A DNA stretch of 34,857 nt from an uncultured Actinomycetota bacterium. GTDB taxonomy: Bacteria; Auribacterota; Ancaeobacteria; Ancaeobacterales; CAZGMX01. Location: contig CAZGMX010000007.1 in assembly GCA_964526865.1 (NCBI GenBank), positions 1-34,857 on the forward strand, read 5' to 3'. Shown one piece after another: positions 8,649 to 34,847 of this stretch. The translations under genes were made by a program, and so were the position numbers. Each line of letters starts with the position of its first letter. Position 1 is the first letter of the stretch. The notes under the pieces are model-generated. The model searched no databases, was not told the origin of the DNA, and saw only the letters and a list, made by a program, of their open reading frames with translations.

Positions 8649-8678
8649 CGTCCCCGCCGCAATCTGCGCAGCGCTCTC
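8649..8678 (-). other. 30-nt spacer between the giant ORFs, in frame with both (10 sense codons E-S-A-A-Q-I-A-A-G-T following the TAG). Contains only a weak SD-like GGGGA (8651-8655), 2 nt from the ORF2 ATG.
   Basis: Minus-strand read: TAG GAG AGC GCT GCG CAG ATT GCG GCG GGG ACG ATG. The coordinates 34847 and 8648 both leave remainder 2 on division by 3. No hairpin or terminator is apparent. Confidence 0.9.
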
Positions 8679-23600: not shown

Positions 23601-26600
23601 ATAATCCCGCTGCAACTCGGCAATCTGTGCGGCAAAATTTGGAAGATCGGCAACGTCCATACTCTGCAGGTGCCCCTGAACATCGGTCAACTTTGCAACA
23701 AAAGCAGCGGCCTTGCCGGCATCGGGAGCCTTATGAACATTCCAACCAGAAGGCGACGTTATGCCATTTGCAATGCACAATGCGCCGAATGTCCCGCTGT
23801 TCTCAAGAATCGTCTTTAATGCCGGATCAGGAGTAAAGATTTGGATGTTGCGCGGATCGATCCGGCCGAACGACGCGCTGTCGCTGCCCATCGTTGCATC
23901 GTAGACGGCCTCCGTATAGACCGCATACTTGCCTGTTGCGGGCGAAATGGTAACCGGCCCTGAAGGGGACGTTACCGACCTGCTGTCCTCCAATATTTCC
24001 CCGCTGGGCAGTTTCCACTTCCATATGTCGCACGCGGCCGCGCCCCCCGCCAATGGATAAGCACGCATTCTTTCTTGAAGCACGCTCACCCTGACATTGT
24101 CCGGATCCGAATTATCCGTCAGTGTTTTTTGAGCAGGCGGCATCTCGAATCCGTATTCATGAAACACTCTTTGCGAAGCGGTGTACTCTGTTTTTGTCTT
24201 CGGGACATAAATCTTTTTGCTCGCATCATTTGGATCCTCAACCATCTGCCCCACTTCCCAATTGCCTGTGCCGGGTAGCCCGCCGCCTGGAAGGGTTTTC
24301 TGTTCAAATTTATAGACAAAGTCTCCTTGAACCACCTGGCCTTTCGTACCCACGGGGATTTTTAACGTCGTGACGACGGTCTTTAGAACGTTTTCCAAAT
24401 CAGTCCTGGCAGGGTCTCCGATTGCCGTCTTGAGCGTGTTCCACGCCGTGTCTGTCACCTTCGCCGAGGCACCGCGCAGGGTGAGGACTCGATCCGTTCC
24501 CGCGCTGTTATAGAGCCCCATTTCCTTGAATGCAACCCCGCCCTCTTTACCCGTAACAACGTCGCTCTGGCACTGGGCCACCGGCTTGCCCGCGATCGTG
24601 ACCGTCTTCATGGTCGTCTCAGTCACTGAATAGTTGTCCGAAGTCGTAACACCCACCGTCTTAACCTCCCGGCCGGCAGCCACTTCTTCCGAAAGTGCGA
24701 GTGTCGGTTCACCTTTGATCTTCACATTTTCCACCAGCATGGGGGCGGCCGTAGCAAGCAGATTACGGGATGTGAACCTTGGTATGAATTCAGCCGCTTT
24801 GACATCGTCACTAATACTACTCCAGGTATAGACAGGATTAGTTGGCTGCTGCTGATCCCTTTGCCATACAAAGACCTTGGCGTCTATTTTTCCAGTGGTC
24901 GCGTTTTTTTCATAGCGGACATTCACGGAATAGAACACGTTGGAAGGACTCCCCTCTGCGGCCGGCGTCACCTGATAAACACAATAACTGCTATTTGTGC
25001 CCCGCGTCCCGGTTGCTGTCAGGTATTGATTGTCTTCCATCCTTTGAATTTTGATTTTTCCGCCATCAACAGAAATACCCAACCTGCGATACCCGGTCGA
25101 TAACGCCGCCAATCCGTTATCCAGAATAAAACAGTCATTCTGGCTTGTACCCGGATTTGTAGACGCCTTAATATCGAAACTTATCTCCGGCAGATCTGTG
25201 GTCTTCAAGGGCTTATCGAAAGTCAGTCCGACATAAGTACTCCTGCCCGTCATGGCCAGTTTGGAATCCGAACCAATGGATTGCGAAACAATGGTGTTTC
25301 CATCGCCTACCGGCCCGGTAGCAGTCCAATTCGGTGCGTACGCGCGCATGAACGTCTCTGTCACATCGGGGACAGAATTCCCGGCGGCGTCCGTCGCCGT
25401 TGTCGTTTTCTTTTCACTTTGCAATGTGCCGTTAAGGTATGTCTGTGCCCTCGTCCCGATTTCCGGGGCAGTCAGCGGTACCTCTACAACCCCCGTCACC
25501 ATGACCAAATCGCCGTTCTTGCGCGTGAGTGTCGCGGGTTCCTTGACAGTCGCGCCGTCCAGCCCGTTCACTTTTTCCTGGCTTATGGGCATGGGTGTGT
25601 TCGCTGTCACGGGCAATACAGTGCCTTCCGGCAGAGGAAAAACCTCCGATCCGCCTGTGGAAATCCAGTCACCGCCAACAATATCGTAGGAATAGGAATT
25701 TGTCGTATTATCCAGACTATATGTGCATTTGTAACGGACAGGTGCGCCGCCTTCATAATCATATTGCTCTGTTGTTTTGTAATTCCAAACCCATTTCGTT
25801 GGGTCGGCACAAGTTCCTGTGGGATCGGTAAAGTATTCCGTGTTGAGTACAGTTCTTTTAATTTGATCGCCATCCATTTCCGTCTCCGCCGAATATGGAT
25901 AGGGGTTCCAGCTCGTCCGAGACCCTCCTGAACTGATAAATTTGTTACCTCTTTGAACCACCGTACCGATCACGGTTGGATTGGCCCCCAGCGTAAGGTA
26001 CGTAGTCGTTTGCGCTCCTCCTTCGCTAACCACCTGCTTCGTACAATTGGTGCTATACAGTTGAGGATAGGTCATTCCGGGGACTAAGGAGGCATCTTGA
26101 ACAACCTCGCTGGCCATGGTCTTGACAATGGTCGTTCCATCAGGGCGGTAATAAGTTTCCGTCACTTTATACCCCAGCGTATCGGCATACCCTTGACAGA
26201 TCCGCTCCGACAACTTCTTCCCTTCCCTGGTCCGTGTCGTTGTTGTGGTTGCAGTTGCATAATCCTGAACCGTCTGAAGAACCTCTCCGGAGGGCAGGTT
26301 TTCCACGGTCGTTGTTCCATTGTATGTCTCTGAAATGGTCTTCATCACCGTCCCGTCACTCTTCCTGATCACTGTCATCCAGCCCCCGCCCATCACAGCG
26401 CGTTCTTCTGTATGACCGTCTTTATACGTCATCACATATTTGTCGATCGTCGCCGTGCTGGTATTTCCTGGCGTTGCATAGGTCCGATCCTCCCGTATCG
26501 ATGCAATGTCCGTTGGCGCCCCAGATTTCAGCGAAAACCAATTTTGATAATTCTGGCCGAATCGCGTTCGCATCGTATTCATATGGTTTTTATAGGCTTG

Positions 26601-29600
26601 AGGAGCCGTTGAATCCTCCGGCACGACCCTATAGGTATCAGAACGCTTGGCTTCCAGCCCATTGACATATTCCGATGTGGAATTCATCATGGACGAATTC
26701 TGAATGGTCTTCTTCGGGACTTTTACCCATTCCGTAGAAACAGCGGGGTCGTGCTCAGACCAAGTGCGTCTTACCTCCTTACCTGTCGAATCCGTATAGA
26801 TGACAACCAGCTGGTCCGTTGTTTTGGTCATCACCGATCTCCCCGCCCCTGCAAAAAGGGTTGCATCCGTGTATCTATCCTCGGTGACTTCCTCCAACAA
26901 TCTCGGTGCGTTCCCAACCCATTGATATGTTGTGGTTATTTTTCTGCCGTCCGCATATTCATAAATGCTTTGGATACACCGCCCGCCTGCGGTCGGATTG
27001 TTGACATCGGCAATATTCGATTCGTAAAGGAGGGTTTCCCGCAGGGCAAAAGCTCCATCAATGGTGGTTATTACATCGAGCATATTGCCCTGTACTACCC
27101 ACCTGATGACATCGTCTTCCCACCCCGCATTCGGATAGTTAGGATAAGTGTTGTAGTTAGTACCAGTTCCCGCCGTCGGCGTCACCTTGAATTTCATCAC
27201 GTCCGTTGACGTAATTGTCCCTGTTGCGTTTGGCTGGCTGAACGTTTCTGTCACCCGCGTCTTACTGACGGAATCCGTGATGATCCTTTCCGAACCGCCG
27301 CTGGTATTGTTGTTGATCTGGATAGTCCTCCTCGGATTTTGCGCCGCGTCGTACTCGATGATCTCCGTTTTCTGCGTATTGCCGAAACCTGTAATTTTCT
27401 TCTCGCTCACGATTTTTGTGCCCGTGGAATCCATTTCCTTTTCGGTTGTCAAACCCGTTTGATAATTTGTGTCCCGGATCGTGCGCCCCGCGGCCTGCGG
27501 CGTGCGCTGGAATACAATGTCCTTGATCTGGATATTCGCATCCCACGTACTCCCGTCACCGCCATCGTTCTTCCACTTCAACTGCACGGTCTTGGGCATC
27601 GTGCCTGTCATTTGACCAAGGGAGAAAGGAGTATTTGTCTGGTATTGGGAAGCGCTGGCCGGAATATTCATCGTGCCCTTGCTCACGCCATCAACAAACA
27701 CCTCGACTTGATAGTTTGTGTAGCTGGAATTCAGCGGCGCACCCCAGTTCTTAGCGGACACTTGAATCTGTACATTGGGACTATCACTGCCAAAATCCAC
27801 ACTGTAGTCCAGCGTTTGATCTTGGAATGCAACCTTTTGCGTCGCACCATCATCCAGCCAATTGGCACTTCTGTTGACATACTGAATCGCCGTAAAAGTC
27901 ATGTCCGGGCTCGTCGCTGGGATCTGCTCGATTTTTCGAAGCCGCGTCCCGCCGATATCCCAGTTTTCCACCACGGATTGATTGCCGGCAATGTCAAGGG
28001 TGGTCTTCGCTTTCACCTTTGAACTGTTCGGCGGAGGATATACTTCGCGGATCTCCGTTGTTGTTACCGCACCGGTTGTGTAAAAATCCGTGGTTTGGAC
28101 ATTGCCGACCGTGGTCACTTTCTTTTCATAATTCGTCGTACCGGCTATATAGAATTCCTCCTCTTTTTTTCCTGAGGGATAATAGATCGTGCGGTTATTT
28201 CCGGGCCCTGTGTTGCGATACATCGTGGAGGTCGGAGTCAGCGTTGTGACAATATTGCTAATGGCCGCTTCCAAATCGGCGCCAGACAGCGGTTTCAACC
28301 GGGTGAGCGCGTTTGTAACACACGTCTCCGCCGTACTTAGGTTTGTGGGTCCATTGAGACATATGCTTACATTTCCAACACTACCCGACACAAGCGATTT
28401 TGTGACAACCACACCATACTCCTGCGTAGGTGTCACCCCTAATGCGTCATAGGCGGAGTAGTATTTCTGTTTCTCATAATAACCTGCCCCATCGGGCGTT
28501 CCCGTGACATAGGTCTCTGTTTTGCGCAGTTTCTTGGGCGTCGCAGACGAATCATACACAAAAGATTCTTCCTTCAGCGTCGCAGATCTGCCGGCGGGGA
28601 CTGCAGATGCCTGATGATAGGTGATGGTCTCTTCCTTCCCTGCGGAATAGAACTGGGTCACCGTTGTTTTTTCTTTCAATCTGTTTTTATCCGCCTCTGT
28701 CGCCGGTTCACTAGAACAGATCGTTTCCGTCGTCCGCAGCACGTTACTCACGATTTTGCTCTCCGTCGTTTTATATTTCCCGTTTGGCAGGTTCTGACGG
28801 ACTTCCGTCCTGTCGGCAAAAATATACTTTTTCGCCCAGCTGCTGCTCTGAGCGTCCCAGATGGGAATATACACATTGGTCCCGGCAGGCAATGAATTGA
28901 GGCGGGCCTGTACCGCCGAAACAACAGCGGCCTCGGTTGCCGCAGCAAAATTGGGCACATCTGTTTTGATCTGATTAAAGAAACTCCTCAACTCTTCCTG
29001 CTTGCCTGCCTGGGCAATTTCAACCCACACGGCTAGGGGAGTAGCCCCTTCCCGGCTAGTAAGGCGCCCTTCTGTTTGCGGGACAGTTTGCGCCTGCATT
29101 AGGTCAATCTTGGCTTCCAATTGCGTTCTCGATGAATTGGGATATATAGCGACTGTTTCGCGTGTGTTATAAGCCTTGCTGCTCTTGAAGGGATCCGTGC
29201 CGCCGAATACCTGCGCCAAAGGATACTCCTCTTTCCTTATCCACTTGCCCCCTGCAGGCATGTTGGTCTCGATTTTCGTGACTGTCGTGGGGTCGTTCTG
29301 CTTATAACTTGTAATCACAGAGCTCCCGTCCTGCGGGAAACTGTCGATCATAAATTTATAGCCATCACCGACGACATATTCGCTTCGTGTCTTTACAACC
29401 GTTCCACCGGCATTTTTCCAAGTTGTTTCACGGCCCGTACCTGACACTGTTTTTCCTATTTTGATATATTCCCGCACGCCAGGATTGTTAACCGGGAACC
29501 CGAGATCTTCTCTGACCCGTGAAAAAACAGGGCCGCCGCCGATCTCAAGTACCTCTCCCATGGCGAGACCGGGCAAAATCGATTCTGCGGCAGTAATAAA

Positions 29601-32600
29601 CTGCTGCTGCGTCGTCACACCTTTAAGCTTTGTGCCTGTAGGTTGGAGAGCATTTTCAACTTGACTCAACCAATTTTTGAGCGCATCTGTCTTGCCCCCC
29701 GCATTGATGTTGGCGTAAAGCGTTACACGATTGTCCGTAACGTACCCTGCTCCACTTATTGGCTGGGATATATCTGTCCAGTCCCAATATTTCGCTCGCA
29801 GTTTTTTAGGCGTAACGCCCGCATCAAGAATATACTCATTGCGGCTGTATTTGGTCGTATCTGTCCGGTTGACATTTTCCGTCTTCCACACTTCACTGCC
29901 CACACTGCCGCTGGCAGTAAAATCCTGATTGGTATAAACGACGGTCTTTTCCACCCGGTTAAATGGCAGCGCCGCCCCTCCCCCTGTTATAAAACGATCA
30001 CTCACCCACACGGGTGTACCCGTACCCACCTCCGTCGCCTTCCATTCATTCGCCCCCGTCCGCTCCAGTGTAAAGCTCCTGTTGGGCGGTCCGCCGGGCA
30101 GGGTGGGCAATTCAATCTTTTCGCCGATTTCCAGCGGCGTCGCGGACGCCGGCAGTTTTTTAACCGCAGCGATGATTGAGTCAGCGTTGGTTAGATCAAC
30201 ACGTTTGGCAGGATCGGGATCACTAGCTAGCCTTTTCAGTTCCATCAAGCGGCTGTTCGCCTCTGTCTGCTTGCCGGCAGACCATGAATCTTTTAAGTTG
30301 AGCACAACGCTTTGGCCGTCCGCCCCCATGATACTTTCTTCATGGCTGAAAATGTCATATTTCTCTGGTGTCGTAGCCGTAGCACCTGTCACGGGCCCGC
30401 GTTCTTCGACAATACGAACAGCGGACTTATCCGGATTTGCTGGATCGTATCCCGTGTAATATTGAGTCAAGTAATCCGTCTGCACCTGAACATGGGTACT
30501 CCCTGCGATGGGGGTCGTGGTGTCTTTAGTGATTGCATAAGACACATTGGCTATACGTCCGATCTTGACGTTATCCACCAGTAAGGGAGCGGGACCGTAC
30601 ATTGAAAAAATAAAGTCTTGCTCCTGGTTCGTCCCATTGAAATCGCATATTTTATCGTCCGCAGCACCGGCAATCCCTTTTTTATACAACGAAAAACGCA
30701 ATTTGCCATCTTCATATAAAGCTTTTATTTTATAAGTGGAATTCTTATCTATCTCTTTTATGAACATCGCATTGTTACTTGCTTTGCGCGTATCCCACAG
30801 ATATGCCAAAGTTTTTCCGCTATACGGGCCCCCAAGGTCATCGGCAAAGGCCAGCTCATAACTACCAAAGCCCACTCCAGATCCGTATTCGCCACCAGCA
30901 AAATTGACATCCAATTCCAGTGTTGGTTTGCTTGCTATTTCGAGGGTGTTTCTTAACTCCAAGCCACCATAGCCGGTAATTTGCGCCTGTCCATTTTGCA
31001 GAGAAACGCCTGAATTCACTCTCCATATGTTTTCGTCAATAGCTTGGTTTTGAAAACTGTCGGCCATTACTTGCTGTTCGACACGCTGTGCCCTGTGATA
31101 CCTCTCCTCGACCACATTATTCGCCTTGTAATCAGTCCGTTTACACAGCATCTCGCCATCGGGTGTGCCCAATATGTAATCCTCCTTCCACTGTGGATTG
31201 CCATTGTCTGTGAACGTCCGATATTTCATCCACCCTTTCGTCTCCGTTGTGAGCGCTTCGGTTGCGGACACCTTCTGGACATCCTTGATAGAGGTGAGGT
31301 ACCCCATTTCAACATTGTCCAGCTTCAGGGGGGCACCACGGGTAAACATTGCGAGATTTGGATTAAAACCAATTCCGGCGACCGTTACCACTTGGGACGA
31401 CGGCGGTTTCTGTGTGCCCCTTTCATAGACATATAATTGCGCGGCACCTTGAACAATTTCGATCTCGGTAACATAGAATTTTGATGGATCGATGCGGGTT
31501 GAAATCAATTTGACAGCATTGCCTGACGAATCTGACAATAGCGACGGCGCCGCATCCGGCGGAACCATCTTTGCCATATAAAAAAAGTAATTGTTCGAAC
31601 TGGGGTCCTTGCAAGCATAAACTCCCAGCCGTTTCGATGCCACACCAGCATTTTCGTTCTTATTGTTGATCTCGATAAATGTTCCGGAGAGATTTTGCGT
31701 ATCCACCTGAAACTCAACTTTAAAGTACGGGTTCCTCGCCCCGTCGAGGGTATCGCGACCAACGATTTCTGCCCAGTAACCATCTGTTCTTGAAATGTGG
31801 GTTACCCCTTGTGTTATTTCCTGATCAGTTTGTCCAAAAGCAGTATCGGGTGTACCCGCAAAGAGCCGTGTCATATTTCGAAAATCTGAGAAATTTTCTG
31901 TCAGTTGTACCTGCTGCCCATCTCTTGTCACTGCGGGAATTGTTATTTCCTTTGTCTGTGCCACCGCGCCGTCGGATCCATATTGATACTGCTTGCGCGT
32001 GTTGCCGTCTTTCACCTCCGAATATTGTTTTCTGCCCAAGGCATCACAATAATCGGTGGTCACCTTCGTCCCTGCTGTTGTGGTTACCGTAATAAGTCCC
32101 GTCTGGGCATCTATGTGAGCAACCGAGCCCGGTCTCCAGGACGCGTCTGCTGTTGTGGCAGTGATATTTGTTATATCCTCTACCGGCCCGCCTTCTACAA
32201 ATGTCATTCCATTCTTTATTGCGCCGTTCTCATAAATGAACATCGTAACAGTTCCGCTGCCCCTCTTCATGACCGTGCCATTTATGATTTGCTCCGCACC
32301 GTCCACCATTCTTATGGTAGTTCCCCTCATGATGGTGAATCCTGATACCCCCATAACGCTGACAGTCGGTGTTGCGGCATCCACATCATAGACCACTGTG
32401 CCATCCAGCAACTGTTTTAGTTCGGCGAGAAGGTTTGCGGCTTTACCCACCGCTCTGGCTTGGCTTGCCACAACCGCACTGTTCACCGGCACTTCCGGGC
32501 TAATTGTGTCGGAAATAAACCGGCGGCTTATTTCGCCTGGAACATTCGTGCGGCACCTAGTCTTTTCCAGATACACATCCGGTGGGGGAGAAACATTTGC

Positions 32601-34847
32601 AAATATGGTCCGCGCCTGCTGTGCCGCTTGGGCTAATTGATCCGGAGTAGCAGTCCCTATTGCGATATTTTGCGACGCAAGATTATTCCTCACTGTTTCA
32701 AAATAGCTGCTAATAAGATCTTTCATTCCGGTTTCTTTTGCTTCCACAACCAGCGTGCTCTGGGTCCAGTCACCGGTTGCGCCTGTGAGCATCATCATAT
32801 GTCCTTTACTCGGGTTATCACGATTTGGCCATTCCCCCAAAACAACAGTATAGGAATCGGCCCCAAAACCATAACCAACATCTTGCCTCTTGAAATACGT
32901 ATTTTCCTGATCATACCCATATTGATATTCATCTGTTGTTACAAAACCGCTTGCCCCCCCCCGTTGATATGTGAGAGTGTTCAATTTTCCCGGAGCCACC
33001 GTAACGTCTGAACTTGCAAAGGTATCGCCGCGGTTCAAATATTCGTTCCTATATTGATATTCACGCTGATTGCCGCCCAAATCTTTGGAGAGTATTGTTT
33101 TTTTTTCTTTTACGGCCTGAGTTGCGTCGTGTATCTCTTCCTGCGTCTCTGACTCCACTACCATCACATCGCCATCGCTCCCGGTACTGGTGTATCCTGC
33201 ATAATCCTTCCGGACGGAAAAATAATTCTTGCTTCCCTTTAAAGAATCCGGAACAGTTATCGTAGCACCCCATGCACCGCTTATAGCCTCATCCGCAAGA
33301 TTCCTCGCTGAATTTCGAAGAGTTATGCCTGTAATACAATAGGTAATAAAACCGGCTTTGGGCCAGCTATAGCTCTTTTCTATGACAATTTCTTCACCGC
33401 TATTCAGTGCAGGCAGTACAGCGTCGATAGCGCTGTCAAGCGCCTCGTAACTGCCTACACTTTGAAAACTATCCCGGATAGCATTAAACCGCGCGGGAAG
33501 ACCTGTACCGAAATTTACGGGAGTTCCATCTGGATTCACGCCGGCGAATTCTGCTGTAATTATTGACTCGCCTTGAGCATAATATGTCTGTTGTATCTTT
33601 CCATTATCCTGAACTTCACGAACGGTTCCTTCCAAGATATTCAAGTAGTCTCCTTGCCTAATAAATGTGCATCCGTTAAGATAAGTGACGTCCCCCTCCG
33701 TCAGGTCCCCACTATTCAATATATAGCTCCCATCCTGCCGGGGTCCCGTCACCGTACCCGTCCCCGCCCCCAAAATCTCTTTGGCGCTTTCGGCGGCCAG
33801 GACCACCGGCTTGCCCGGTTCTGCGGTCAGAGCCGCTTCTGGCTTTACGGCCAGGGGCGCTTCACCGGCCTCGGCAATCGCGGGCGTTTCCGGCAGAGGC
33901 GCTTCTCCGGCAAGCGCGGGAACCTCTGGCAGAGCTAGTTCTTTGGCAATCGCGGGCTCTTCCGGTTGGACAACCGTGCCCGGAGGGAGCTGTTCGTCCG
34001 TCAAGATGACACCCGTTCCATTGCCTGCGGCCCACATGGCCTGAAATTCCATGATCCCGCGATCCTCGGCTTTTTCCCCGTCCGTCACTTTGACAAACTG
34101 GCTGCCATCGTCCCTGGTCATCACCTGCGCCATCACGTAGTGGTTGCCGCCAACGTGCGCGATAAAGGGTTCTTTCATCGCAGTCAAATCTGAAAAATCC
34201 ATTTGGACAACCTTCATGTCAAGGCCGGCACTTTTGGCCATGTTGGCAATTGTCCAGGCGGACGTCTGCAGCGCGCCCTGTTGCGGTTGCTCTCCCACTT
34301 CCAGCTTTAGGACACCGCCCAGGATGTCGGACAGGATGGTCTCGCCGACAAAACTCTCAAAGTCCTCGGCAAGCGCCCCTGTCTCTTCCCGCGTTCTGCC
34401 CGCCAGCATACGGCTCAATAAGGCCGCCTGCTGTGGAATTCCCTGATCCAGCGCCTGCTCGGGAGTCTGCATCACTCCCTGAATTCCGACCTCACCTTCC
34501 CCTTCCAGCACCGGCAGAATTCCCTGGTCCGGCTCCCCTCGGCGCGCCAGGGGCTGTGTCGCGGGCATTCCCTCGACAAACGCCTGCTCGGCCGTCTGCG
34601 CGGCGCCCGGCATAATCGCTTGCGCCCCCTCGGGCAGCAACAGCTCTTCCGGCGCCCCGGCCGGCAGGACAGGTTCTCCGGCCGCCGCCGCGCTCACCGG
34701 CTCCTCGGGCTTGAGCGTGCCGGCCTTGTAGGCCAGCAACGCGCCCAGAGAAAATACGGCGCAGTTGATCAGGGCCGTCCCCTGGCTGGTCAAGAAGGCC
34801 GCCATGTTTTCAACTGCCTTTTTGGCCTCCGCCGCATCGTTGATCAT
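8679..34847 (-). CDS. Giant modular protein, 8,722 aa. N-terminal C39-like cysteine peptidase domain, ConA/LamG-like and CBM-like beta-sandwich domains, many internally repeated alpha/beta modules. Probably a secreted or cell-surface adhesin-like protein. The 5' end may extend beyond the window.
   Basis: The ORF track shows one uninterrupted minus-strand ORF ending in TAG at 8679-8681. Every overlapping plus-strand ORF is short and R/P/C/H-rich, typical of antisense shadow frames. The three codons upstream of the ATG (K-Q-T, 34848-34856) are also open to the window edge. No Shine-Dalgarno is visible in the 10 nt available, so the start codon is uncertain. Confidence 0.9.
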   Translation of the reverse strand: MINDAAEAKKAVENMAAFLTSQGTALINCAVFSLGALLAYKAGTLKPEEPVSAAAAGEPVLPAGAPEELLLPEGAQAIMPGAAQTAEQAFVEGMPATQPLARRGEPDQGILPVLEGEGEVGIQGVMQTPEQALDQGIPQQAALLSRMLAGRTREETGALAEDFESFVGETILSDILGGVLKLEVGEQPQQGALQTSAWTIANMAKSAGLDMKVVQMDFSDLTAMKEPFIAHVGGNHYVMAQVMTRDDGSQFVKVTDGEKAEDRGIMEFQAMWAAGNGTGVILTDEQLPPGTVVQPEEPAIAKELALPEVPALAGEAPLPETPAIAEAGEAPLAVKPEAALTAEPGKPVVLAAESAKEILGAGTGTVTGPRQDGSYILNSGDLTEGDVTYLNGCTFIRQGDYLNILEGTVREVQDNGKIQQTYYAQGESIITAEFAGVNPDGTPVNFGTGLPARFNAIRDSFQSVGSYEALDSAIDAVLPALNSGEEIVIEKSYSWPKAGFITYCITGITLRNSARNLADEAISGAWGATITVPDSLKGSKNYFSVRKDYAGYTSTGSDGDVMVVESETQEEIHDATQAVKEKKTILSKDLGGNQREYQYRNEYLNRGDTFASSDVTVAPGKLNTLTYQRGGASGFVTTDEYQYGYDQENTYFKRQDVGYGFGADSYTVVLGEWPNRDNPSKGHMMMLTGATGDWTQSTLVVEAKETGMKDLISSYFETVRNNLASQNIAIGTATPDQLAQAAQQARTIFANVSPPPDVYLEKTRCRTNVPGEISRRFISDTISPEVPVNSAVVASQARAVGKAANLLAELKQLLDGTVVYDVDAATPTVSVMGVSGFTIMRGTTIRMVDGAEQIINGTVMKRGSGTVTMFIYENGAIKNGMTFVEGGPVEDITNITATTADASWRPGSVAHIDAQTGLITVTTTAGTKVTTDYCDALGRKQYSEVKDGNTRKQYQYGSDGAVAQTKEITIPAVTRDGQQVQLTENFSDFRNMTRLFAGTPDTAFGQTDQEITQGVTHISRTDGYWAEIVGRDTLDGARNPYFKVEFQVDTQNLSGTFIEINNKNENAGVASKRLGVYACKDPSSNNYFFYMAKMVPPDAAPSLLSDSSGNAVKLISTRIDPSKFYVTEIEIVQGAAQLYVYERGTQKPPSSQVVTVAGIGFNPNLAMFTRGAPLKLDNVEMGYLTSIKDVQKVSATEALTTETKGWMKYRTFTDNGNPQWKEDYILGTPDGEMLCKRTDYKANNVVEERYHRAQRVEQQVMADSFQNQAIDENIWRVNSGVSLQNGQAQITGYGGLELRNTLEIASKPTLELDVNFAGGEYGSGVGFGSYELAFADDLGGPYSGKTLAYLWDTRKASNNAMFIKEIDKNSTYKIKALYEDGKLRFSLYKKGIAGAADDKICDFNGTNQEQDFIFSMYGPAPLLVDNVKIGRIANVSYAITKDTTTPIAGSTHVQVQTDYLTQYYTGYDPANPDKSAVRIVEERGPVTGATATTPEKYDIFSHEESIMGADGQSVVLNLKDSWSAGKQTEANSRLMELKRLASDPDPAKRVDLTNADSIIAAVKKLPASATPLEIGEKIELPTLPGGPPNRSFTLERTGANEWKATEVGTGTPVWVSDRFITGGGAALPFNRVEKTVVYTNQDFTASGSVGSEVWKTENVNRTDTTKYSRNEYILDAGVTPKKLRAKYWDWTDISQPISGAGYVTDNRVTLYANINAGGKTDALKNWLSQVENALQPTGTKLKGVTTQQQFITAAESILPGLAMGEVLEIGGGPVFSRVREDLGFPVNNPGVREYIKIGKTVSGTGRETTWKNAGGTVVKTRSEYVVGDGYKFMIDSFPQDGSSVITSYKQNDPTTVTKIETNMPAGGKWIRKEEYPLAQVFGGTDPFKSSKAYNTRETVAIYPNSSRTQLEAKIDLMQAQTVPQTEGRLTSREGATPLAVWVEIAQAGKQEELRSFFNQIKTDVPNFAAATEAAVVSAVQARLNSLPAGTNVYIPIWDAQSSSWAKKYIFADRTEVRQNLPNGKYKTTESKIVSNVLRTTETICSSEPATEADKNRLKEKTTVTQFYSAGKEETITYHQASAVPAGRSATLKEESFVYDSSATPKKLRKTETYVTGTPDGAGYYEKQKYYSAYDALGVTPTQEYGVVVTKSLVSGSVGNVSICLNGPTNLSTAETCVTNALTRLKPLSGADLEAAISNIVTTLTPTSTMYRNTGPGNNRTIYYPSGKKEEEFYIAGTTNYEKKVTTVGNVQTTDFYTTGAVTTTEIREVYPPPNSSKVKAKTTLDIAGNQSVVENWDIGGTRLRKIEQIPATSPDMTFTAIQYVNRSANWLDDGATQKVAFQDQTLDYSVDFGSDSPNVQIQVSAKNWGAPLNSSYTNYQVEVFVDGVSKGTMNIPASASQYQTNTPFSLGQMTGTMPKTVQLKWKNDGGDGSTWDANIQIKDIVFQRTPQAAGRTIRDTNYQTGLTTEKEMDSTGTKIVSEKKITGFGNTQKTEIIEYDAAQNPRRTIQINNNTSGGSERIITDSVSKTRVTETFSQPNATGTITSTDVMKFKVTPTAGTGTNYNTYPNYPNAGWEDDVIRWVVQGNMLDVITTIDGAFALRETLLYESNIADVNNPTAGGRCIQSIYEYADGRKITTTYQWVGNAPRLLEEVTEDRYTDATLFAGAGRSVMTKTTDQLVVIYTDSTGKEVRRTWSEHDPAVSTEWVKVPKKTIQNSSMMNSTSEYVNGLEAKRSDTYRVVPEDSTAPQAYKNHMNTMRTRFGQNYQNWFSLKSGAPTDIASIREDRTYATPGNTSTATIDKYVMTYKDGHTEERAVMGGGWMTVIRKSDGTVMKTISETYNGTTTVENLPSGEVLQTVQDYATATTTTTRTREGKKLSERICQGYADTLGYKVTETYYRPDGTTIVKTMASEVVQDASLVPGMTYPQLYSTNCTKQVVSEGGAQTTTYLTLGANPTVIGTVVQRGNKFISSGGSRTSWNPYPYSAETEMDGDQIKRTVLNTEYFTDPTGTCADPTKWVWNYKTTEQYDYEGGAPVRYKCTYSLDNTTNSYSYDIVGGDWISTGGSEVFPLPEGTVLPVTANTPMPISQEKVNGLDGATVKEPATLTRKNGDLVMVTGVVEVPLTAPEIGTRAQTYLNGTLQSEKKTTTATDAAGNSVPDVTETFMRAYAPNWTATGPVGDGNTIVSQSIGSDSKLAMTGRSTYVGLTFDKPLKTTDLPEISFDIKASTNPGTSQNDCFILDNGLAALSTGYRRLGISVDGGKIKIQRMEDNQYLTATGTRGTNSSYCVYQVTPAAEGSPSNVFYSVNVRYEKNATTGKIDAKVFVWQRDQQQPTNPVYTWSSISDDVKAAEFIPRFTSRNLLATAAPMLVENVKIKGEPTLALSEEVAAGREVKTVGVTTSDNYSVTETTMKTVTIAGKPVAQCQSDVVTGKEGGVAFKEMGLYNSAGTDRVLTLRGASAKVTDTAWNTLKTAIGDPARTDLENVLKTVVTTLKIPVGTKGQVVQGDFVYKFEQKTLPGGGLPGTGNWEVGQMVEDPNDASKKIYVPKTKTEYTASQRVFHEYGFEMPPAQKTLTDNSDPDNVRVSVLQERMRAYPLAGGAAACDIWKWKLPSGEILEDSRSVTSPSGPVTISPATGKYAVYTEAVYDATMGSDSASFGRIDPRNIQIFTPDPALKTILENSGTFGALCIANGITSPSGWNVHKAPDAGKAAAFVAKLTDVQGHLQSMDVADLPNFAAQIAELQRDYSAIMTQIETAWGIKYAQDQASRDAVAAAFGFNNETKAVGADINATAYDIRHIKSGDKHILTAAIEGTSYIATRVYDAEYNLIKTDITQKVSGVNNREIKTFLPGDSVHPAITIKGAESEFGDVGRFFDSMQRQLESRRSDDLAYPESPDPGEMTRWARRQILDNYVPDNVDFTIDYGGIVNKFKVTNGVATQETTGLMESGTPFREMTETGTYQPIRMNGTAGLKERARRFEGQTGSETVIFDEWKWRCNGSVVDYDSTPGTTDNRTVGASFDFVDRNSATGVSAGYPKVWDSQGTEITNSVFVFTSQADTSQVTGFGSDSATQGRFDAADLQIKQFSMKSVMDSSEISGQVAASFGLAANTEAEALMLLQGSSSDITDCVEAFNSVQRELGRIQAIAQPKPDNIKYTANVLRDNVEINSRKAGITDAQALAAVKQIVGIEKVKTAFEFDSAELDPAVAANARDFDLGLNTDGSITAALKDAGGNQIGQATFAYIQGTGQNAGAIQRKDFVLKAGGSPAGAVIEDEIGYTYLGARNIVSTSHYVGGKTPNLGVGVIDPNLAWTRDVTDEQDNNSKTPIKIVTIDRSVNPGGTPPGAVTKFITKYAVDNTQSPAVLTLQEKELRRQVTDAAGNAVKFAEKYAPPVTASGGPSKASPDQGTIIPSPATGYPTLVDAAGTPITDGFLYLANDAMLSETDRAANVAADDPSRLFYDPEKIGAYVTGNHDLLVSTGVEANILADKGVTDPFDMTMRQITDVLAALRTADAAIDGIASVWQTGSDIAALKGAIDSIKTQYNLPDSAIQSILQDRIGTSAVVGYANNMLTISQGGAPAMRMEVLTGNYVQKNPSNASEWLISVGGTSYNMSTLATDLENNKSTFDNKLQEAQTFLALPEGNNPPSPTNNVLAWNITATIDNDLYFAGTLLPITTFTSTADWDRLDSYYDLNGLSESLDVADGKITNAESVKSAFQTEKTKYDAIKSATTATGAGTLNELVTADLGNLDSKVPASGALILNPAQNAVETSLSSAIAGLTNYAQQQYAARIVPAKENIYQQNINLAVTSLGQPSAGAIESSGLKQAIIDDFEMNATQVNMGNDSTFPHPIAKIDALKLVLARAQVVLGGVNAATPNSTVAAVAQLDAELDLALGTAADYDTSEMKNCTTGTIAKLMEAQVAGLTSTTDLITAAGNILAVGGNALAALSQARTQALSEFKSSSNRETYVAALRSIAALYDQAGNAASAVSVRNDVFTLEANRALTLMLAVYRSAMPTAMLEGLKAQGDLSSNTALDSKIDQYRAALTAINGALNNAYSNLITDGRAFAQLCLTMKDHNVPEAQVKEYVRSIVNAAWFVPSGVAAEWNGDSTVLQTRETAAPNRVTASYNLINGKTTTCIIYDGSTSNINTMTITDPIARTSTVENRVNKSKTIVSTNSAAPMTIKEYYNNVDQSTGISTGLSGLDISFKSEGTVAAGGTYVQTCTSYMTDTGTGAIVPEIELITGENNGQQYQRLMKNNVNYFEVAWPMLTQRRQAMLDARASFTSPTLFVDSDAGALNAESLSALEGHESRYVTAARDTVAAAVGAIDANNPWNSAQAVQMFGYINHMMDKTISSERLSLNTYLAATKNAYARSYGEEDTVSYSGLVNDYDTAQEAIRTQHAAIAGKILEKFNAGQTAAYSSLSTENAAAVQGSGLKDAISTLFVGRTVVPSDQWTTGDLLPQGALSYYTAAVYDPVNGTVRPSGTLPPDRDISASPYFKPSQCVAALERIAGATNSAMSSATLLDFKTIGTAIEAVRSAIGNEYRTQLVSPIETAQSQAMDASVAAAFAQRLTQGTVAPTINLANGTIEFTSATGNIIRGNITDGSYSMFQSNGTTKICDAANTYDGTGKNTVREFSYPVTLAGGATATVTDRWELDTGTNTLVPAAGYPRAVAADGSTNLPIVASSRTTDNLIDVANLDVSPISWGTLGTPAAPNADGIIAAVAQMQAAGITTVAHILSAALTNDDYTAVYNTPKRLLTILAESSGAPFKLEIGTGNFAKKTGADWVVRVNGTERNLSTVAGDIRRENGDFTAVCNDTEAYLGVPATGTAPAANTAAKAIKDAVDQGLVAAGNIASPMTEAAWTNLKSGYATALTAVQNAITDPVSGKRAAFDQARSELVTAIGEFTAVNDGASADLKALISTKLSEIQGTASVPLAYPQNREETLTGYVYDQQDRFIAGMAAVYNQEAVYVLDNVHYPGLNTRLDNAMAAMAASGLKDALLADIKTPSGAVDMGGVVRAANGIYNLFDGQHAAPAAGGTAPYGAIAAFRNTVNNAGYQISLMSNDPSGGASRLAFIDTSVLKPAYGAVHGTGAVYENSTLHAKVAGALIVELNRISAESNIAGVSVGAAKSILALGGDAQAVLDKGIPRAAQADILASYSVSDLASLASQPASKITQVFETMSSVVNAVSQWGSYASPDVERIYAFMRDNASPNFYKLSDTAVKSLMEAKFASTNTGESAVYNTDKKTLTLSNDLGIFYRLDVSRGEYVKRSGNDWIFGYRGNPNNVGVSDRNLTRLVSNLSLGKDSLVRAYSDAVNYMAVPAEGTAPAAGSALNLVADAVAGDLGVTVTQPVTAAGWDSLEANFKSALAAVQTALGDGSGSKVVALGTGYSTFYWPNRDCAYIKTAASQGAGSLGELITGKLDEINQILSDTNIPTIPTWDTGTATDKAKIMLAGRPEALTTAVYSQQNNLIAKKKEVLLAEIDRVAVGLGSDRAQVINQSGLKMEYLRACGYDPNAADNILNMGDRDRSASLFPPPNTVGSANPTPQTAVAGYSTGLGRINSALNGITATDSASVITARGNIKTLMLSVLNFSLNGGWDRREVRYTTDQIAARYETSTLKQSVDASVAGVIAQQAAAMTSAADRIAAAKSIMAIQGNPQAVVDMLAPKAVQDGVLAHFGIASLADLAGSPADTIDQVLTAMSDIGAVIGGVGTRAEPNADGIITFVNSLQNLPAEAIKQILEAHFKGPGVGDTAVYDTTKKMLTISTDPIGAVFRLEVASGKYSKWVGGKWTTFENLGGGSIRETVVESNVTTMQVKTNGVLQSRTVIDNVAKTETTEYFEDDGETVASRVEKTETVGQGGTPILTANIFYRNSSDNMEQVIGLSGSPAVVNQMTWAQVEALCVRIAGKNGSVLTDELETILKASSWTTGLTAQIAREDTIYRLEKGTEYGEMGRCVVLKKNAEGNFVKTRDMIITNYSGQTRKLLYDYLVGEPPVQMVVGEATMVRRFRNIPSDTTNGWYAETFEWVMPNGITVRLNIPTARRDTNGILQNPSDEESAIEHGLIAYSSDYKSRIIIYTGVEGKINDTILDDNSFGVYDPSKMVFVDYKIGGDITTTNMKWRIVKEMASAYESRSISRGEFHMIPPEKATDFNRDLENVQNALGGLSASTQRALAEETYGGGVVFDRSKKMLMTGDKEVRWEVDHYVTTKFTAKFMVNADSGAYASLDQATGKWKAVVNGAECVVNDAAAAQQLLEATGAVPAIGTRTAPNADGIITFVNSLQNLPAEAIKQILEAHFKGPGVGDTAVYDTTKKMLTISTDPIGVTFRLELGTGNFVKRDGTDWAARVGGKEMNLSTLKSDLVNNKYGFNNAYQEAQNYITGRLDPASSFPVSRQIWMRSLAELISTPEGEGDDYVTDMKPSAEALLSNLKTDFAQRMGVSPENISAENIFVRHSSLNPDYIGRFIPGLQAQPDEDGWIDGFNVTILYAGKKYSYLTAGTAELGFMPAETRRLSAAEQMDYAVSRPLDNVNTFEAIVPMEARFDGVAGEIRAQIAGDVTATQNMMGALTDNIADYRSVKGLSQDLLGAVDSAVMTALDTAVPATADPVYELMETAEAELKLETGDLATYALGRKDKFTQKRAELYKAEIDSIVSSLGGSRAWEMESSGTTQTLMNNFGLSAADVDLGGKKLSADCFDVFTPAGPTTAAAALLSRAQAVENFGKVIQAIDGAKNIPSTILSSTLKAIAAKLADPDFDAGAVVLDEKIIRWGARIAAVDTAIKVWNDARDDGRVVGSLYNVLLAQKLSTDEAKNIVETVTSYNGMRPALDMDKGTLEYYGTTKDGVELLAEKMDVINGTDTHFYYYPSTTTLPSYPLRETSANDPIAGTYTITDYDTDGETVTERSISRSSDPDYGGVYTYTTEDWVKKTKEIFGTDTDGVSFAVREFYIGVDQAVGLTGRDLAWVTEGQPWVEDGKDWKYKFVTYQADPDTGESVADIELVYGMVNGSHVEMLNKDGVDYFNEPMKLRTERRQAMLEGAKLLVPGSYVDPNAGDLATENLAALETHRADYLSNARLQAAGVLAGVHAKDPWLYDRKNMHAEKLFAYTNALIDKSNLYGRTDFVDVLDAEVKYGYLRSFTELPEFAAPLNQADKDTGRITFAAAYESVQKKIQSEYDAVTAVVKDKYDAGVKTAWGTDIATPTMATNAVVNSGLTAMLGTLFAPDNSLPAIETVPVVTAPPSMTMAKYKGGEVIPGQELVPGPAAKEEVERQVLKPSQSLNILQRIAPAAIQSLEKANLTDPRTIAQGINEVSLKIYQEFLNTVNVPSRQTKPTGVTDLNTLQALISTYPGYDAGVPVKVAAAFAEVLKQAKNMPVINLVAGTIEMTDPVTGNVTRGKLSDGSYSVFQPGGTTKIFDVVNTYDGATGANIGRSFTYPVTLADSTAVRVEDVWDINSSNGAVTPRTGYPKAYNVQTSNEMPITVAGDLRDPQTNLLNMANISLYTPATLPEGQSLTINVDTVVAENVNGYSGVTLKAGAVVTRENGLLKVVNGHLLQNSAVENGNKQNDTEFRSRQEISMLETTTYTTGPGAGKVQGYFQQFADTGHNLVRAELNTNVSNSAQDIVALREFARDAQAASNPTSAAGMEEFLNSHLELLGKFPLIEKFHPGELNFFAAQYTKDGNNIAINYQDISHSLGSVRTIDGVRRVLDANGVSAAVE
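9330..11010 (-). repeat. Paralogous block B (~560 aa) of the same duplication.
   Basis: See block A. The order of all sub-motifs is conserved, and the blocks lie about 8.4 kb apart. Confidence 0.8.
12862..13026 (-). repeat. Copy A of a perfect 165-bp direct repeat inside ORF1 (codes ...PNADGIITFVNSLQNLPAEAIKQILEAHFKGPGVGDTAVYDTTKKMLTISTDPIG).
   Basis: Base-by-base comparison with 14521..14685 gives 165/165 identical (ccgatcgggtcggtggagatcgtcagc...cccatctgcattgggc). The flanks drop to partial similarity within about 20 nt on each side. Confidence 0.9.
14521..14685 (-). repeat. Copy B of the perfect 165-bp direct repeat, offset 1,659 bp (553 codons, in frame) from copy A.
   Basis: Same comparison as for copy A. 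The shared antisense peptides in track ORFs 12724..12945 / 14323..14604 and 12942..13430 / 14031..15056 reflect the same identity. Confidence 0.9.
17740..19310 (-). repeat. Paralogous block A (~520 aa) of an old intragenic segmental duplication.
   Basis: Colinear protein similarity with block B. Matching pairs: MTIKEYYNNVDQSTGI.../FAVREFYIGVDQAVGL...; ...LTQRRQAMLDARA/...RTERRQAMLEGAK; ...FKPSQCVAALERIA/...LKPSQSLNILQRIA; ...NLANGTIEFTSATGNIIRGNITDGSYSMFQSNGTTKICDAANTYDG.../...NLVAGTIEMTDPVTGNVTRGKLSDGSYSVFQPGGTTKIFDVVNTYDG.... DNA similarity is only partial in the stretch compared (18021.. vs 9624..). Confidence 0.8.
24705..25340 (-). other. ConA/LamG-like jelly-roll domain 3.
   Basis: APNWTATGPVGDGNTIVSQSIGSDSKLAMTGRSTYVGLTFDKPL...EISFDIKAS...GKIKIQRMEDNQY...FYSVNVRYEKNATTGKIDAKVFVWQRD...LLATAAPMLVENVKIKGE. 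Same organisation and same terminal strand as domains 1 and 2. Confidence 0.45.
27503..27866 (-). other. CBM6/CBM35-like (galactose-binding-like) beta-sandwich domain, ~121 aa.
   Basis: ANWLDDGATQKVAFQDQTLDYSVDFGSDSPNVQIQVSAKNWGAPLNSSYTNYQVEVFVDGVSKGTMNIPASASQYQTNTPFSLGQMTGTMPKTVQLKWKNDGGDGSTWDANIQIKDIVFQR. The pattern (x-V-x-V-D-G-x-x-x-G-x-x-x-I-P..., ...V-x-L-x-W-x-N-D..., terminal I-x-F) resembles carbohydrate-binding modules. Assignment is by eye only. Confidence 0.4.
30552..31055 (-). other. ConA/LamG-like jelly-roll domain 2 (aa ~1265-1432).
   Basis: IWRVNSGVSLQNGQAQITGYGGLELRNTLEIASKPTLELDVNF...TYKIKALYEDGKLRFSLYKKG...DFIFSMYGPAPLLVDNVKIGRI. The opening W-x-x-x-x-G-x-x-L-x-N-G-x-x-x-I and the closing DNV strand are typical of LamG/DUF1080-like lectin folds. 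Confidence 0.55.
31299..31790 (-). other. ConA/LamG-like jelly-roll domain 1 (aa ~1020-1183).
   Basis: Alternating beta-strand pattern ...YFKVEFQVDTQNLSGTFIEINN...KFYVTEIEIVQGAAQLYVYERG...FNPNLAMFTRGAPLKLDNVEMGY. The terminal strand resembles the hydrophobic-D-(N/E)-(V/I)-x-(I/V) last strand of LamG/DUF1080-type domains. Assignment is by eye only. Confidence 0.45.
32954..32962 (-). repeat. G9 homopolymer on the coding strand (C9 on plus), codons Q-R-G-G-A (aa ~628-632 of ORF1).
   Basis: Plus strand ttg ccccccccc gttg. Minus strand CAA CGG GGG GGG GCA. Confidence 0.95.
33098..33106 (-). repeat. A9 homopolymer on the coding strand (T9 on plus), codons K-E-K-K-T (aa ~580-584 of ORF1).
   Basis: Plus strand attg ttttttttt c. 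Minus strand GTA AAA GAA AAA AAA ACA. Confidence 0.95.
33813..33965 (-). repeat. Imperfectly repetitive P/E/A-rich linker following the peptidase domain (aa ~295-345).
   Basis: Peptide PEEPAIAKELALPEVPALAGEAPLPETPAIAEAGEAPLAVKPEAALTAEPGKP, with GEAPL x2 and PAIA x2. At the DNA level, ggcgcttc(a/t)ccgg recurs at 33856 and 33898, and ggcaatcgcggg recurs at 33872 and 33945. Confidence 0.7.
33993..34805 (-). other. C39-like (bacteriocin-processing type, papain-fold) cysteine peptidase domain, aa ~15-285 of ORF1, interrupted by a large insertion.
   Basis: Motifs match the C39 family pattern. SQGTALINCAVFSLGALLAYKAG corresponds to Q-x6-C followed by a helix (Cys29 codon at 34761-34763). GALQTSAWTIANMAKSAGLDMKVVQMDFSDLTAMKEPFIAHVGGNHYVMAQV corresponds to ...P-x-I-x-H....H-f-v-V (His236 codon at 34140-34142). 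FVKVTDG supplies Asp256, and IMEFQAMWAAGNGTGVIL matches the eF...W....G.vl tail. Confidence 0.7.
34278..34715 (-). other. Low-complexity P/E/G/A/Q-rich insertion (aa ~45-190) between the catalytic Cys helix and the His-bearing half of the C39-like domain.
   Basis: The Cys29-to-His236 spacing is 207 aa, against roughly 70-80 aa in canonical C39 domains. The insert has internal similarity (AIMPGAAQTAEQAFVEGMPATQP vs GVMQTPEQALDQGIPQQ). Confidence 0.6.

Follow-up and report, generated by a model that had tools for sequence, protein, structure and literature searches.

We analysed a 34,857-nucleotide (nt) stretch of DNA from an uncultured bacterium (contig CAZGMX010000007.1 of assembly GCA_964526865.1, positions 1 to 34,857; hereafter the window), in which a giant reading frame encodes a C39-like cysteine peptidase domain followed by a motif resembling the leaders that such peptidases recognise. 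The G+C content of the window, 53%, is above that of most homologous loci. A minus-strand frame running from 34856 to 3 fills nearly the whole window and comprises 11,618 codons, with the TAG at 8679-8681 as its sole stop. This stop divides the frame into two open reading frames (ORFs):

34847 to 8679 (8679..34847), minus strand: ORF A, 8,722 amino acids (aa) from the first ATG (34847) to the TAG stop
8679..8681, minus strand: the in-frame TAG between ORF A and ORF B
3..8678, minus strand: ORF B, 2,892 codons in the frame of ORF A, running off the window start

ORF A and ORF B together make up 11,614 aa, the search space of the family hidden Markov model (HMM), matrix and composition scans described below. 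Upstream of the first Met of ORF A the window holds three sense codons (K-Q-T) and no stop, and no Shine-Dalgarno sequence is visible in the 10 nt between the ATG and the window edge. As the frame is open upstream to 34856, the true start of ORF A may lie outside the window. The region in which the original prediction had recognised a C39-like peptidase, 33993-34805, covers aa 15-285 of ORF A. Its placement at the head of the protein finds no support here: the frame reaches the window edge without a stop, and in every homologue whose 5' end is complete the domain is internal, preceded by a signal peptide and located 330-2,000 aa behind the start. Because of this open frame and the internal position of the homologous copies, aa numbers used here are those of the window and not necessarily those of the protein.

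The split C39-like domain and its relatives

On profile evidence, aa ~8-284 of ORF A make up a single cysteine peptidase domain of the C39 family (clan CA, papain fold), which belongs to a divergent subfamily that occurs in giant proteins and is split into two pieces by a large insert:

34719..34826, minus strand: N-terminal piece of the C39-like domain (aa 8-43), a lead-in plus the catalytic helix α1, TALINCAVFSLGALLAYKAG; delimited by family HMMs, hhalign and the predicted local distance difference test (pLDDT)
34380..34718, minus strand: the insert (aa 44-156), which expands the α1-α2 loop, is rich in P/E/A/G/Q and largely disordered, and aligns with a gap in every homologue
33996..34379, minus strand: C-terminal piece of the C39-like domain (aa 157-284), with an extended α2, α3 and the β-sheet that carries His236 and Asp256

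The Pfam profile Peptidase_C39 (PF03412) matches ORF A with 31 bits (gathering cut-off 22; E 2.5e-7), the alignment being limited to aa 195-246 (profile positions 45-98), i.e., the half that contains the catalytic His. A profile scan with the insert masked had been proposed as a check; with a crude mask the Cys half was still left unaligned. The insert-free relatives P0001 and P0002 also align to PF03412 positions 45-127 only, again without the Cys half, so the gap in the Pfam alignment is not caused by the insert.

Relatives of the domain are few among representative proteins. An exhaustive phmmer search with aa 1-1200 over 1.84 billion representative proteins returned no more than two proteins, P0001, in which the domain occurs in three internal copies, and P0002; in each the match was to the His half. 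A homologue search with aa 1-300 found no protein, phmmer of the same segment against the PDB gave nothing relevant, and alignment-based homologue searches recovered only four canonical C39 proteins. Exact matching likewise returned nothing: a 42-mer from the N-terminus is absent from the genome, metagenome and viral contigs searched, and ORF A, taken with or without the three preceding codons, has no identical entry among ~15 billion proteins. The most conserved strand of the domain, P-[VF]-I-A-x-x-x-x-x-H, served to scan GTDB genomes and JGI metagenomes, which yielded 42 loci, and the majority of the 16 genome loci among them are metagenome-assembled genomes (MAGs) of Candidatus Omnitrophota. 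The frames that contain the homologous domains are free of stops over 1,000 to >5,000 codons and usually carry two or three domain copies. The nearest relatives are thus ~60 domain copies inside giant proteins, mainly of Candidatus Omnitrophota MAGs, and the ORF A domain shares 25-35% identity with any of them. We define the subfamily formed by these ~60 copies by an [IV]-[NS]-C-[AG] motif, an ILxDxLxG extension of α2 and a P-V-I-A-H-V-G-G-x-H strand; the corresponding marks in ORF A are INCA, ILSDILGG and PFIAHVGGNH. Within the ILxDxLxG extension, a segment absent from canonical C39 domains, Asp174 and Gly178 (window 34314-34328) are invariant in all aligned copies.

Two family HMMs, one trained on 24 "type I" copies and the other on 37 "type II" copies of the homologous domain, recover both pieces of the ORF A domain. 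The N-terminal piece aligns through aa 9-40/42 with HMM positions 3-34/36 (independent E-value ~3e-5), and the C-terminal piece through aa 163-287 with HMM positions 41-152 (independent E-value ~1e-19), in each case with both HMMs. These two pieces, in the correct order, are the only matches in ORF A and ORF B, and the E-values for the ORF A domain reach ~1e-24 to 1e-27. Consistent with this, hhalign matches the subfamily, represented by 23 aligned sequences, to four canonical C39 domains at a probability of 99.7% (E 9e-27, 120 columns), superposes the N-C-A cysteine of the subfamily on the catalytic cysteine of the canonical C-G-P, and shows the subfamily α2 to be longer than the canonical one by 13 residues (ILxDxLxG). 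Against the PDB, the subfamily profile finds the C39 domains of PCAT1 (7n87, E 1e-7), LahT (6mpz), ComA (3k8u) and HlyB (3zua). A MAFFT alignment with the four canonical C39 sequences set their C-G-P on V167-G168, or the Cys helix on α3, which is a misplacement. Collectively, these alignments support the original proposal of a C39-like papain-fold domain, and the two ordered halves bear out its division by a low-complexity insertion. By its sequence, the domain carries the defining features of the C39 family except the Gln.

Structure prediction is informative for part of the domain. A single-sequence AlphaFold model reached a pLDDT of 39.5 and is uninformative. In a second AlphaFold model, for which the alignment rows covered the His half only, the pLDDT is 82-94 for aa 200-280 and 79 for the Cys helix (aa 31-40), the latter without any alignment information, and falls below 50 in the insert (aa 49-126). 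The top four matches of this model in a Foldseek search of the PDB are all C39 or C39-like domains (7n87, 3zua, 3b79 and 7sgr), with ~100 aligned columns, followed by other papain-fold proteases; the best match, 7n87, has a probability of 1.0, an E-value of 6e-3 and a target TM-score of 0.47.

Catalytic residues and the loop insert

The residues predicted to form the catalytic triad lie on both sides of the insert:

34761..34763, minus strand: Cys29 codon TGC, predicted nucleophile, invariant column
34140..34142, minus strand: His236 codon CAC, predicted general base, invariant column
34080..34082, minus strand: Asp256 codon, predicted third member of the triad, D/E column

Q22, C29, H231, H236 and D256 are all present in ORF A, and aa 1-392 contain no Cys besides C29. 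The column of Cys29 does not vary in alignments A1-A3, and the segment TALINCAVFSL of ORF A shares the invariant [VI]-N-C-A with all copies in P0001 and P0002. Among complete homologous copies, the Cys motif is kept in 61 of 64, as are Cys and His together (61/64). His236 aligns with the His of "laHFVVIY" in PCAT1, and Asp256 falls at or beside the Asp of the PCAT1 "vaDPG", with an ambiguity of one residue in the alignment and D or E in the homologue column. The original assignment of Gln22, Cys29, His236 and Asp256 to catalytic motifs thus stands for the Cys, the His and the acidic residue, and fails for Gln22, which lies at -7 from the Cys, versus -6 for the Gln of canonical sequences, and is not conserved. 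Its further claim that the catalytic residues are intact agrees with the invariant Cys29 and His236 columns and the D/E column of Asp256, and the domain is predicted to be catalytically active.

The insert extends from the end of the Cys helix (...AYKAG) to helix α2 (ALAEDFESFVGETILSD). Relative to the homologues it is one block of ~113-116 aa, plus ~4 aa extra in the next loop; the single large insert of ~130-145 aa originally described is therefore confirmed as a single block, its length being about right against canonical C39 domains and slightly too great against the homologues. The Cys-His spacing is 207 residues in ORF A, versus 86-87 in most homologues (overall range 85-128) and 73 in the canonical P0004 (the first sequence of A4). 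P, E, A, G and Q make up 62% of the insert versus 33% of the whole protein, and a P/E/A-rich composition is found in ORF A and ORF B only in the insert and in the linker at aa 285-348. Tandem Repeats Finder detected no repeat in the insert DNA.

The loops flanking α2 (α1-α2 and α2-α3) are indel hot spots among the homologues, in which Cys-His spacings of 90-128 come from low-complexity insertions such as KVTGTFS repeats. A search for homologous giant proteins with and without the insert had been proposed; none of the 42 homologous loci has an insert comparable to that of ORF A, the locus L040 carrying a 15-aa P/E/D-rich insertion at the same position. As loop length varies across the family, the insert is best read as a tolerated loop expansion and not as decay, and by comparison with the aligned copies it is the extreme of a loop-length variation that is habitual in the family. 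The C39 loop after the catalytic helix thus tolerates >100 disordered residues. Such a large insert also explains why standard profiles see half a domain, even if the Pfam gap of this subfamily extends to its insert-free members, and annotation pipelines will under-call domains of this kind.

Low-complexity insertions (KVTGTFS, QTQTEVSYS) with spacings of 91-128 occur in the type II copies of loci L017, L020-L022, L025, L029-L032, L036 and L041. The insertions flanking α2 in type II copies differ between otherwise close metagenome sequences, which indicates that these loops evolve fast. Two segments inside the ORF A insert weakly match the leader matrix described below, namely AGAPEELLLPEGA (aa 63-75, window 34623-34661), with a score of 3.6 the 5th best of 8,710 ORF A positions, and VLEGEGEVGIQGV (aa 113-125, window 34473-34511), with a score of 5.5 the 4th best of the same 8,710; both scores are below shuffle noise, and the segments could be chance matches or remnants of a duplicated motif.

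A leader-like motif downstream of the domain

Downstream of the C39-like domain, ORF A continues with a second linker and a short amphipathic motif:

33804..33995, minus strand: second P/E/A-rich linker (aa 285-348), from the domain end to the motif, ~65 aa longer than in homologues
33765..33803, minus strand: double-glycine-type leader-like motif VLAAESAKEILGA (aa 349-361), with the predicted scissile bond after Gly360-Ala361

C39 peptidases recognise Leu-12, Glu-8, Leu-7 and Val-4 in their substrates and cut after GG, GA or GS (PMC6363468). All 25 non-identical complete type I copies carry a motif of the form L(-12)..[LM](-7)..I(-4).G(-2)A(-1), ending 60-62 residues after the catalytic His; examples are VLELEELKGILGA followed by DD, ALSEERMREIRGA followed by TE and ELTIKEMLEIRGS followed by DE. 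E at -9/-8 and A/S at -1 are also seen. Its information content in the 25 copies peaks at -12, -7, -4, -2 and -1 and drops directly after -1, with the following residue counts:

Position -12: Leu, 22/25
Position -7: Met or Leu, 22/25
Position -4: Ile, 22/25
Position -2: Gly, 25/25
Position -1: Ala, 23/25

A scoring matrix built from 12 homologue motifs was scanned over ORF A and ORF B, and its best match in the 11,614 aa is VLAAESAKEILGA at aa 349-361, followed by GTGTV. This match scores 14.8; the maxima of shuffled sequences were 8.2 +/- 2.9, and 13.5 marks their 95th percentile. In ORF A the motif ends 125 residues after the His (His236 to Ala361), versus 60-62 in homologues, because of the second insert, i.e., the lengthened linker. 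In the second AlphaFold model a two-turn helix is predicted at aa 352-359, with a pLDDT of 64-70 across aa 340-375. Seven motif segments of 30 aa, scanned against NCBIfam, were too short to give a match. A leader-like motif beside domains of this C39 subfamily appears to be new.

These observations suggest that domain and motif form a self-processing cassette, in which the C39 domain cuts the giant protein after Gly360-Ala361, and we assign this reading a probability of roughly 0.55. In such a mechanism, the motif helix would dock in a hydrophobic groove of the C39 domain, and Cys29 and His236 would then cleave the chain after Gly360-Ala361, either in cis, with the long flexible linker providing the slack, or between molecules. 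The cut would detach a protease-bearing N-terminal segment from a body of >8,300 aa and might serve maturation or release. A precedent is StbD, a CdiA-like protein, whose C39 domain cleaves in cis behind a Gly-Gly pair of the neighbouring flexible linker; its self-cleavage is abolished by C183A or by a GG-to-SS change and needs reducing conditions (bioRxiv 10.64898/2026.05.07.723447). Autoprocessing had been among the functions originally suggested for the domain, and the double-glycine-type motif just downstream lends this suggestion concrete support.

Several points weigh against self-processing. VLAAESAKEILGA scores 14.8, versus 24-35 for the homologue motifs, and has Ala at -7, a position occupied by Met or Leu in 22/25 homologues. 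The subfamily does not conserve the canonical oxyanion Gln; in homologues, the residue in the Gln22 column is M, S, A or G. Their domain-motif linker, at ~10 residues, may be too short for docking in cis. Three copies without the Cys or the Cys half retain the motif, namely L006 (Ser in its place), L040 (Pro) and L042 (His half only), so the motif may have a role independent of an adjacent nucleophile. The homologues are interrelated, and conservation of the motif could be in part shared ancestry. On the structural side, the second AlphaFold model is informed for the His half only and has a pLDDT <50 at aa 155-192, the Foldseek E-values are weak (none <=1e-3), and the proximity of Cys29 to His236 and the docking of the motif at the domain are predictions made from sequence. 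The Ala at -7, the Gln and the Cys-less copies leave room for non-catalytic docking or for cleavage in trans by another copy.

The degenerate copies are the type I copy of L006 (His at aa 990 of the frame, GSSA), L040:10001-10288 (LSPF) and L042:10001-10186. All three retain a G-A or G-S motif, and in L040 and L042 a long hydrophobic, transmembrane-like tail follows. The His half of L042 directly follows repeats resembling YVTN β-propeller repeats. L040 and L042 have a G+C content of 0.55, near the window value.

Non-catalytic docking is the core of an alternative that we consider unlikely, in which the domain is a catalytically silent, HlyB-like module that binds its own leader-like helix or the leader of a partner and leaves it uncut, acting as an intramolecular clamp, as a chaperone or in secretion tethering. 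Such a module would account for the unconserved Gln22, for the three motif-bearing copies that lack the Cys or the Cys half, for Pfam aligning the Cys half in no subfamily member, and for the presence of the HlyB C39-like domain (3zua) and 3b79 among the top structural matches. However, Cys and His are retained together in the great majority of complete copies (the 61/64 given above), the acidic position is D or E, and hhalign sets the Cys on the catalytic column, whereas C39-like domains are defined by the lack of the Cys. In LahT, moreover, the distance of the Gln to the oxyanion is 4.3 Å, and a role for this residue in catalysis has been questioned (PMC6363468).

It is likewise improbable that the domain is an active protease for other proteins, such as partner giants, peptides with double-glycine leaders, or prey and other targets, and that the motif is a structural tail. 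This alternative was raised by West-Roberts et al. (bioRxiv 10.1101/2023.11.21.568195), and C39 toxin domains do cleave foreign targets, GyrB and ParE in the case of StbD (bioRxiv 10.64898/2026.05.07.723447); moreover, type II homologue copies have no adjacent G-A motif. Yet the motif reproduces all known recognition positions, with conservation ending exactly at -1, and no gene for a GG-leader peptide is visible in the window, which holds only the giant frame. Finally, a coincidental Cys29, with aa 15-43 being a signal anchor or hydrophobic leader, the "insert" a linker and aa ~160-285 a Cys-less C39 remnant, is very improbable: hydrophobicity near the start peaks at aa 24-43 (Kyte-Doolittle 1.47), MAFFT put the canonical C-G-P on V167-G168 and Pfam is limited to the His half, but aa 9-42 match the first 34 positions of both family HMMs and nothing else in the 11,614 aa does, I-N-C-A and the next helix are common to ~60 copies in which the segment is too little hydrophobic for a membrane span, and hhalign reads the "ILxDxLxG" helix as a subfamily-specific α2 extension and not as α1.

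The orphan body and comparison with known systems

Resemblance of ORF A to the 42 loci is confined to aa ~144-343; for the remainder of ORF A and for ORF B, searches of Pfam and the PDB and with phmmer gave no relatives. Apart from PF03412, the 11,614 aa contain no Pfam domain, ABC modules included, and no strong hydrophobic segment. The orphan body (window 3-33764; ORF A aa 362-8722 plus ORF B) amounts to ~11,250 aa, is rich in Thr, Ala, Gly and Asn and contains 0.4% Cys; the description of it as a structural protein or fibre finds no support, as it has no detectable relatives. ORF A aa 4500-8500 contain divergent internal repeats: one large duplication pairs aa 5115-5700 with aa 7881-8505, and a ~115-aa unit recurs at intervals of ~500-550 aa.

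The G+C content at third codon positions (GC3) of codons 1-361 (window 33765-34847) is 0.715, above every 360-codon window in the rest of ORF A (mean 0.584, standard deviation 0.051, maximum 0.686), and it falls to 0.35-0.48 just past codon ~380, at the predicted cut site. As only the cassette has relatives and GC3 shows this step, the cassette may have been grafted onto an unrelated body. More speculatively, and in our view improbably, C39 domain and downstream motif would be a portable self-cleaving "release cassette", providing the first concrete processing site in Omnitrophota-like giants and grafted here onto an orphan body, with the P/E/A-rich expansions acting as entropic tethers or as pseudo-substrate loops that time the cut.

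ORF A and ORF B could either belong to a single gene, interrupted by a nonsense mutation, a sequencing error or a read-through stop, or be two tandem giant genes. The first ATG after the TAG lies at 8646-8648, with a weak GGGGA 2 nt upstream of it. Two plus-strand ORFs, 34144-34446 and 34250-34615, overlap the domain region and are taken as antisense artefacts of GC-rich coding DNA.

In homologues with a complete 5' end, the type I (first) copy lies ~640 aa after a start with a Sec-type signal peptide (MLDWQxKKWIKVIA...AWA). The N-termini of L004, L007-L011, L016 and P0001 are conserved (M-L-D-W-Q-x-K-K-W-[IV]-K-V-I-A...Y-D-I-A-W-A|x-D-F-S-P) and Sec-like, with an AxA cleavage site, and in the same proteins ~600 aa with D-[LVM]-F-G-containing repeats lie between this N-terminus and the first C39 copy.

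A comparison with characterised C39 domains places the ORF A domain apart from the exporter-associated ones. It shares the fold family and the Cys, His and Asp columns with the C39 domains of PCAT/AMS exporters (PCAT1, 7n87/4ry2; LahT150, 6mpz; ComA, 3k8u), and the adjacent motif of ORF A matches their substrate code (PMC6363468). Unlike these proteins, however, the ORF A protein is not a PCAT/AMS exporter, as it has no ABC module and its C39 domain has no fused ABC transporter; Q-x5-C-G is replaced by x-N-C-A, and α2 is longer by 13 aa. The PCAT/AMS substrate motif lies at the N-terminus of a separate peptide, whereas the substrate-like motif of ORF A is in the same chain, C-terminal to the protease. 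The C39-like domain of HlyB (3zua) is a structural neighbour and an example of the C39 fold outside bacteriocin processing, but it has no catalytic Cys, while Cys, His and Asp are all retained in the ORF A domain. The stand-alone C39 peptidase FapD, which belongs to the Fap amyloid system (NCBIfam NF058616), resembles ORF A in having a C39 domain without a fused transporter, and the homologue P0002 matches it weakly (E 5e-5, far below the cut-off); it nevertheless represents a different subfamily, and the ORF A sequence gives no match to NF058616.

In the StbD-CT/Cpe1 toxins, the C39 domain is part of a very large secreted protein, whose chain it cleaves in cis at a pair of small residues within the adjacent flexible linker (10.64898/2026.05.07.723447), much as proposed here for ORF A, the likeness in sequence being taken at the level of the C39 family. 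The Gly-Gly site of StbD is N-terminal to a C-terminal toxin domain acting on GyrB and ParE, whereas the predicted ORF A site is C-terminal to the protease and has no immunity or toxin context.

The closest comparison is with the giant proteins of Omnitrophota. C39 domains had originally been thought not to occur on giant proteins, a view that is outdated: West-Roberts et al. reported them in 2023 near the N-termini of Omnitrophota giant proteins, suggested that they cleave giants and explicitly noted that information on cleavage points was missing (bioRxiv 10.1101/2023.11.21.568195), and a 2026 survey described a 24-protein architecture cluster based on PF03412 (bioRxiv 10.64898/2026.06.07.730766). 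Both papers (10.1101/2023.11.21.568195; 10.64898/2026.06.07.730766) are silent on specific cleavage sites, on any double-glycine or adjacent leader-like motif and on split domains. ORF A and the Omnitrophota proteins share the subfamily (I-N-C-A, ILxDxLxG, PVIAHVGGxH) and a multi-thousand-residue frame in which PF03412 is the sole Pfam match, but the ~115-aa and ~65-aa inserts of ORF A are absent from the homologues, its body has no relatives, and the counterparts of the signal peptide and ~640-aa N-terminal region of the homologues fall outside the window. The architecture of a C39 domain in a giant protein is therefore already published and not new; its unusual elements are the very large loop insert and a substrate-like motif on the same chain that appears not to have been described before. 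Bacterial giants of 10,000 to 147,000 aa have come to light only recently, and the motif bears on the question of whether they act as single chains or as cut pieces. With a substrate-type motif beside the only recognisable protease domain, cleavage of a giant protein becomes open to a specific and cheap test.

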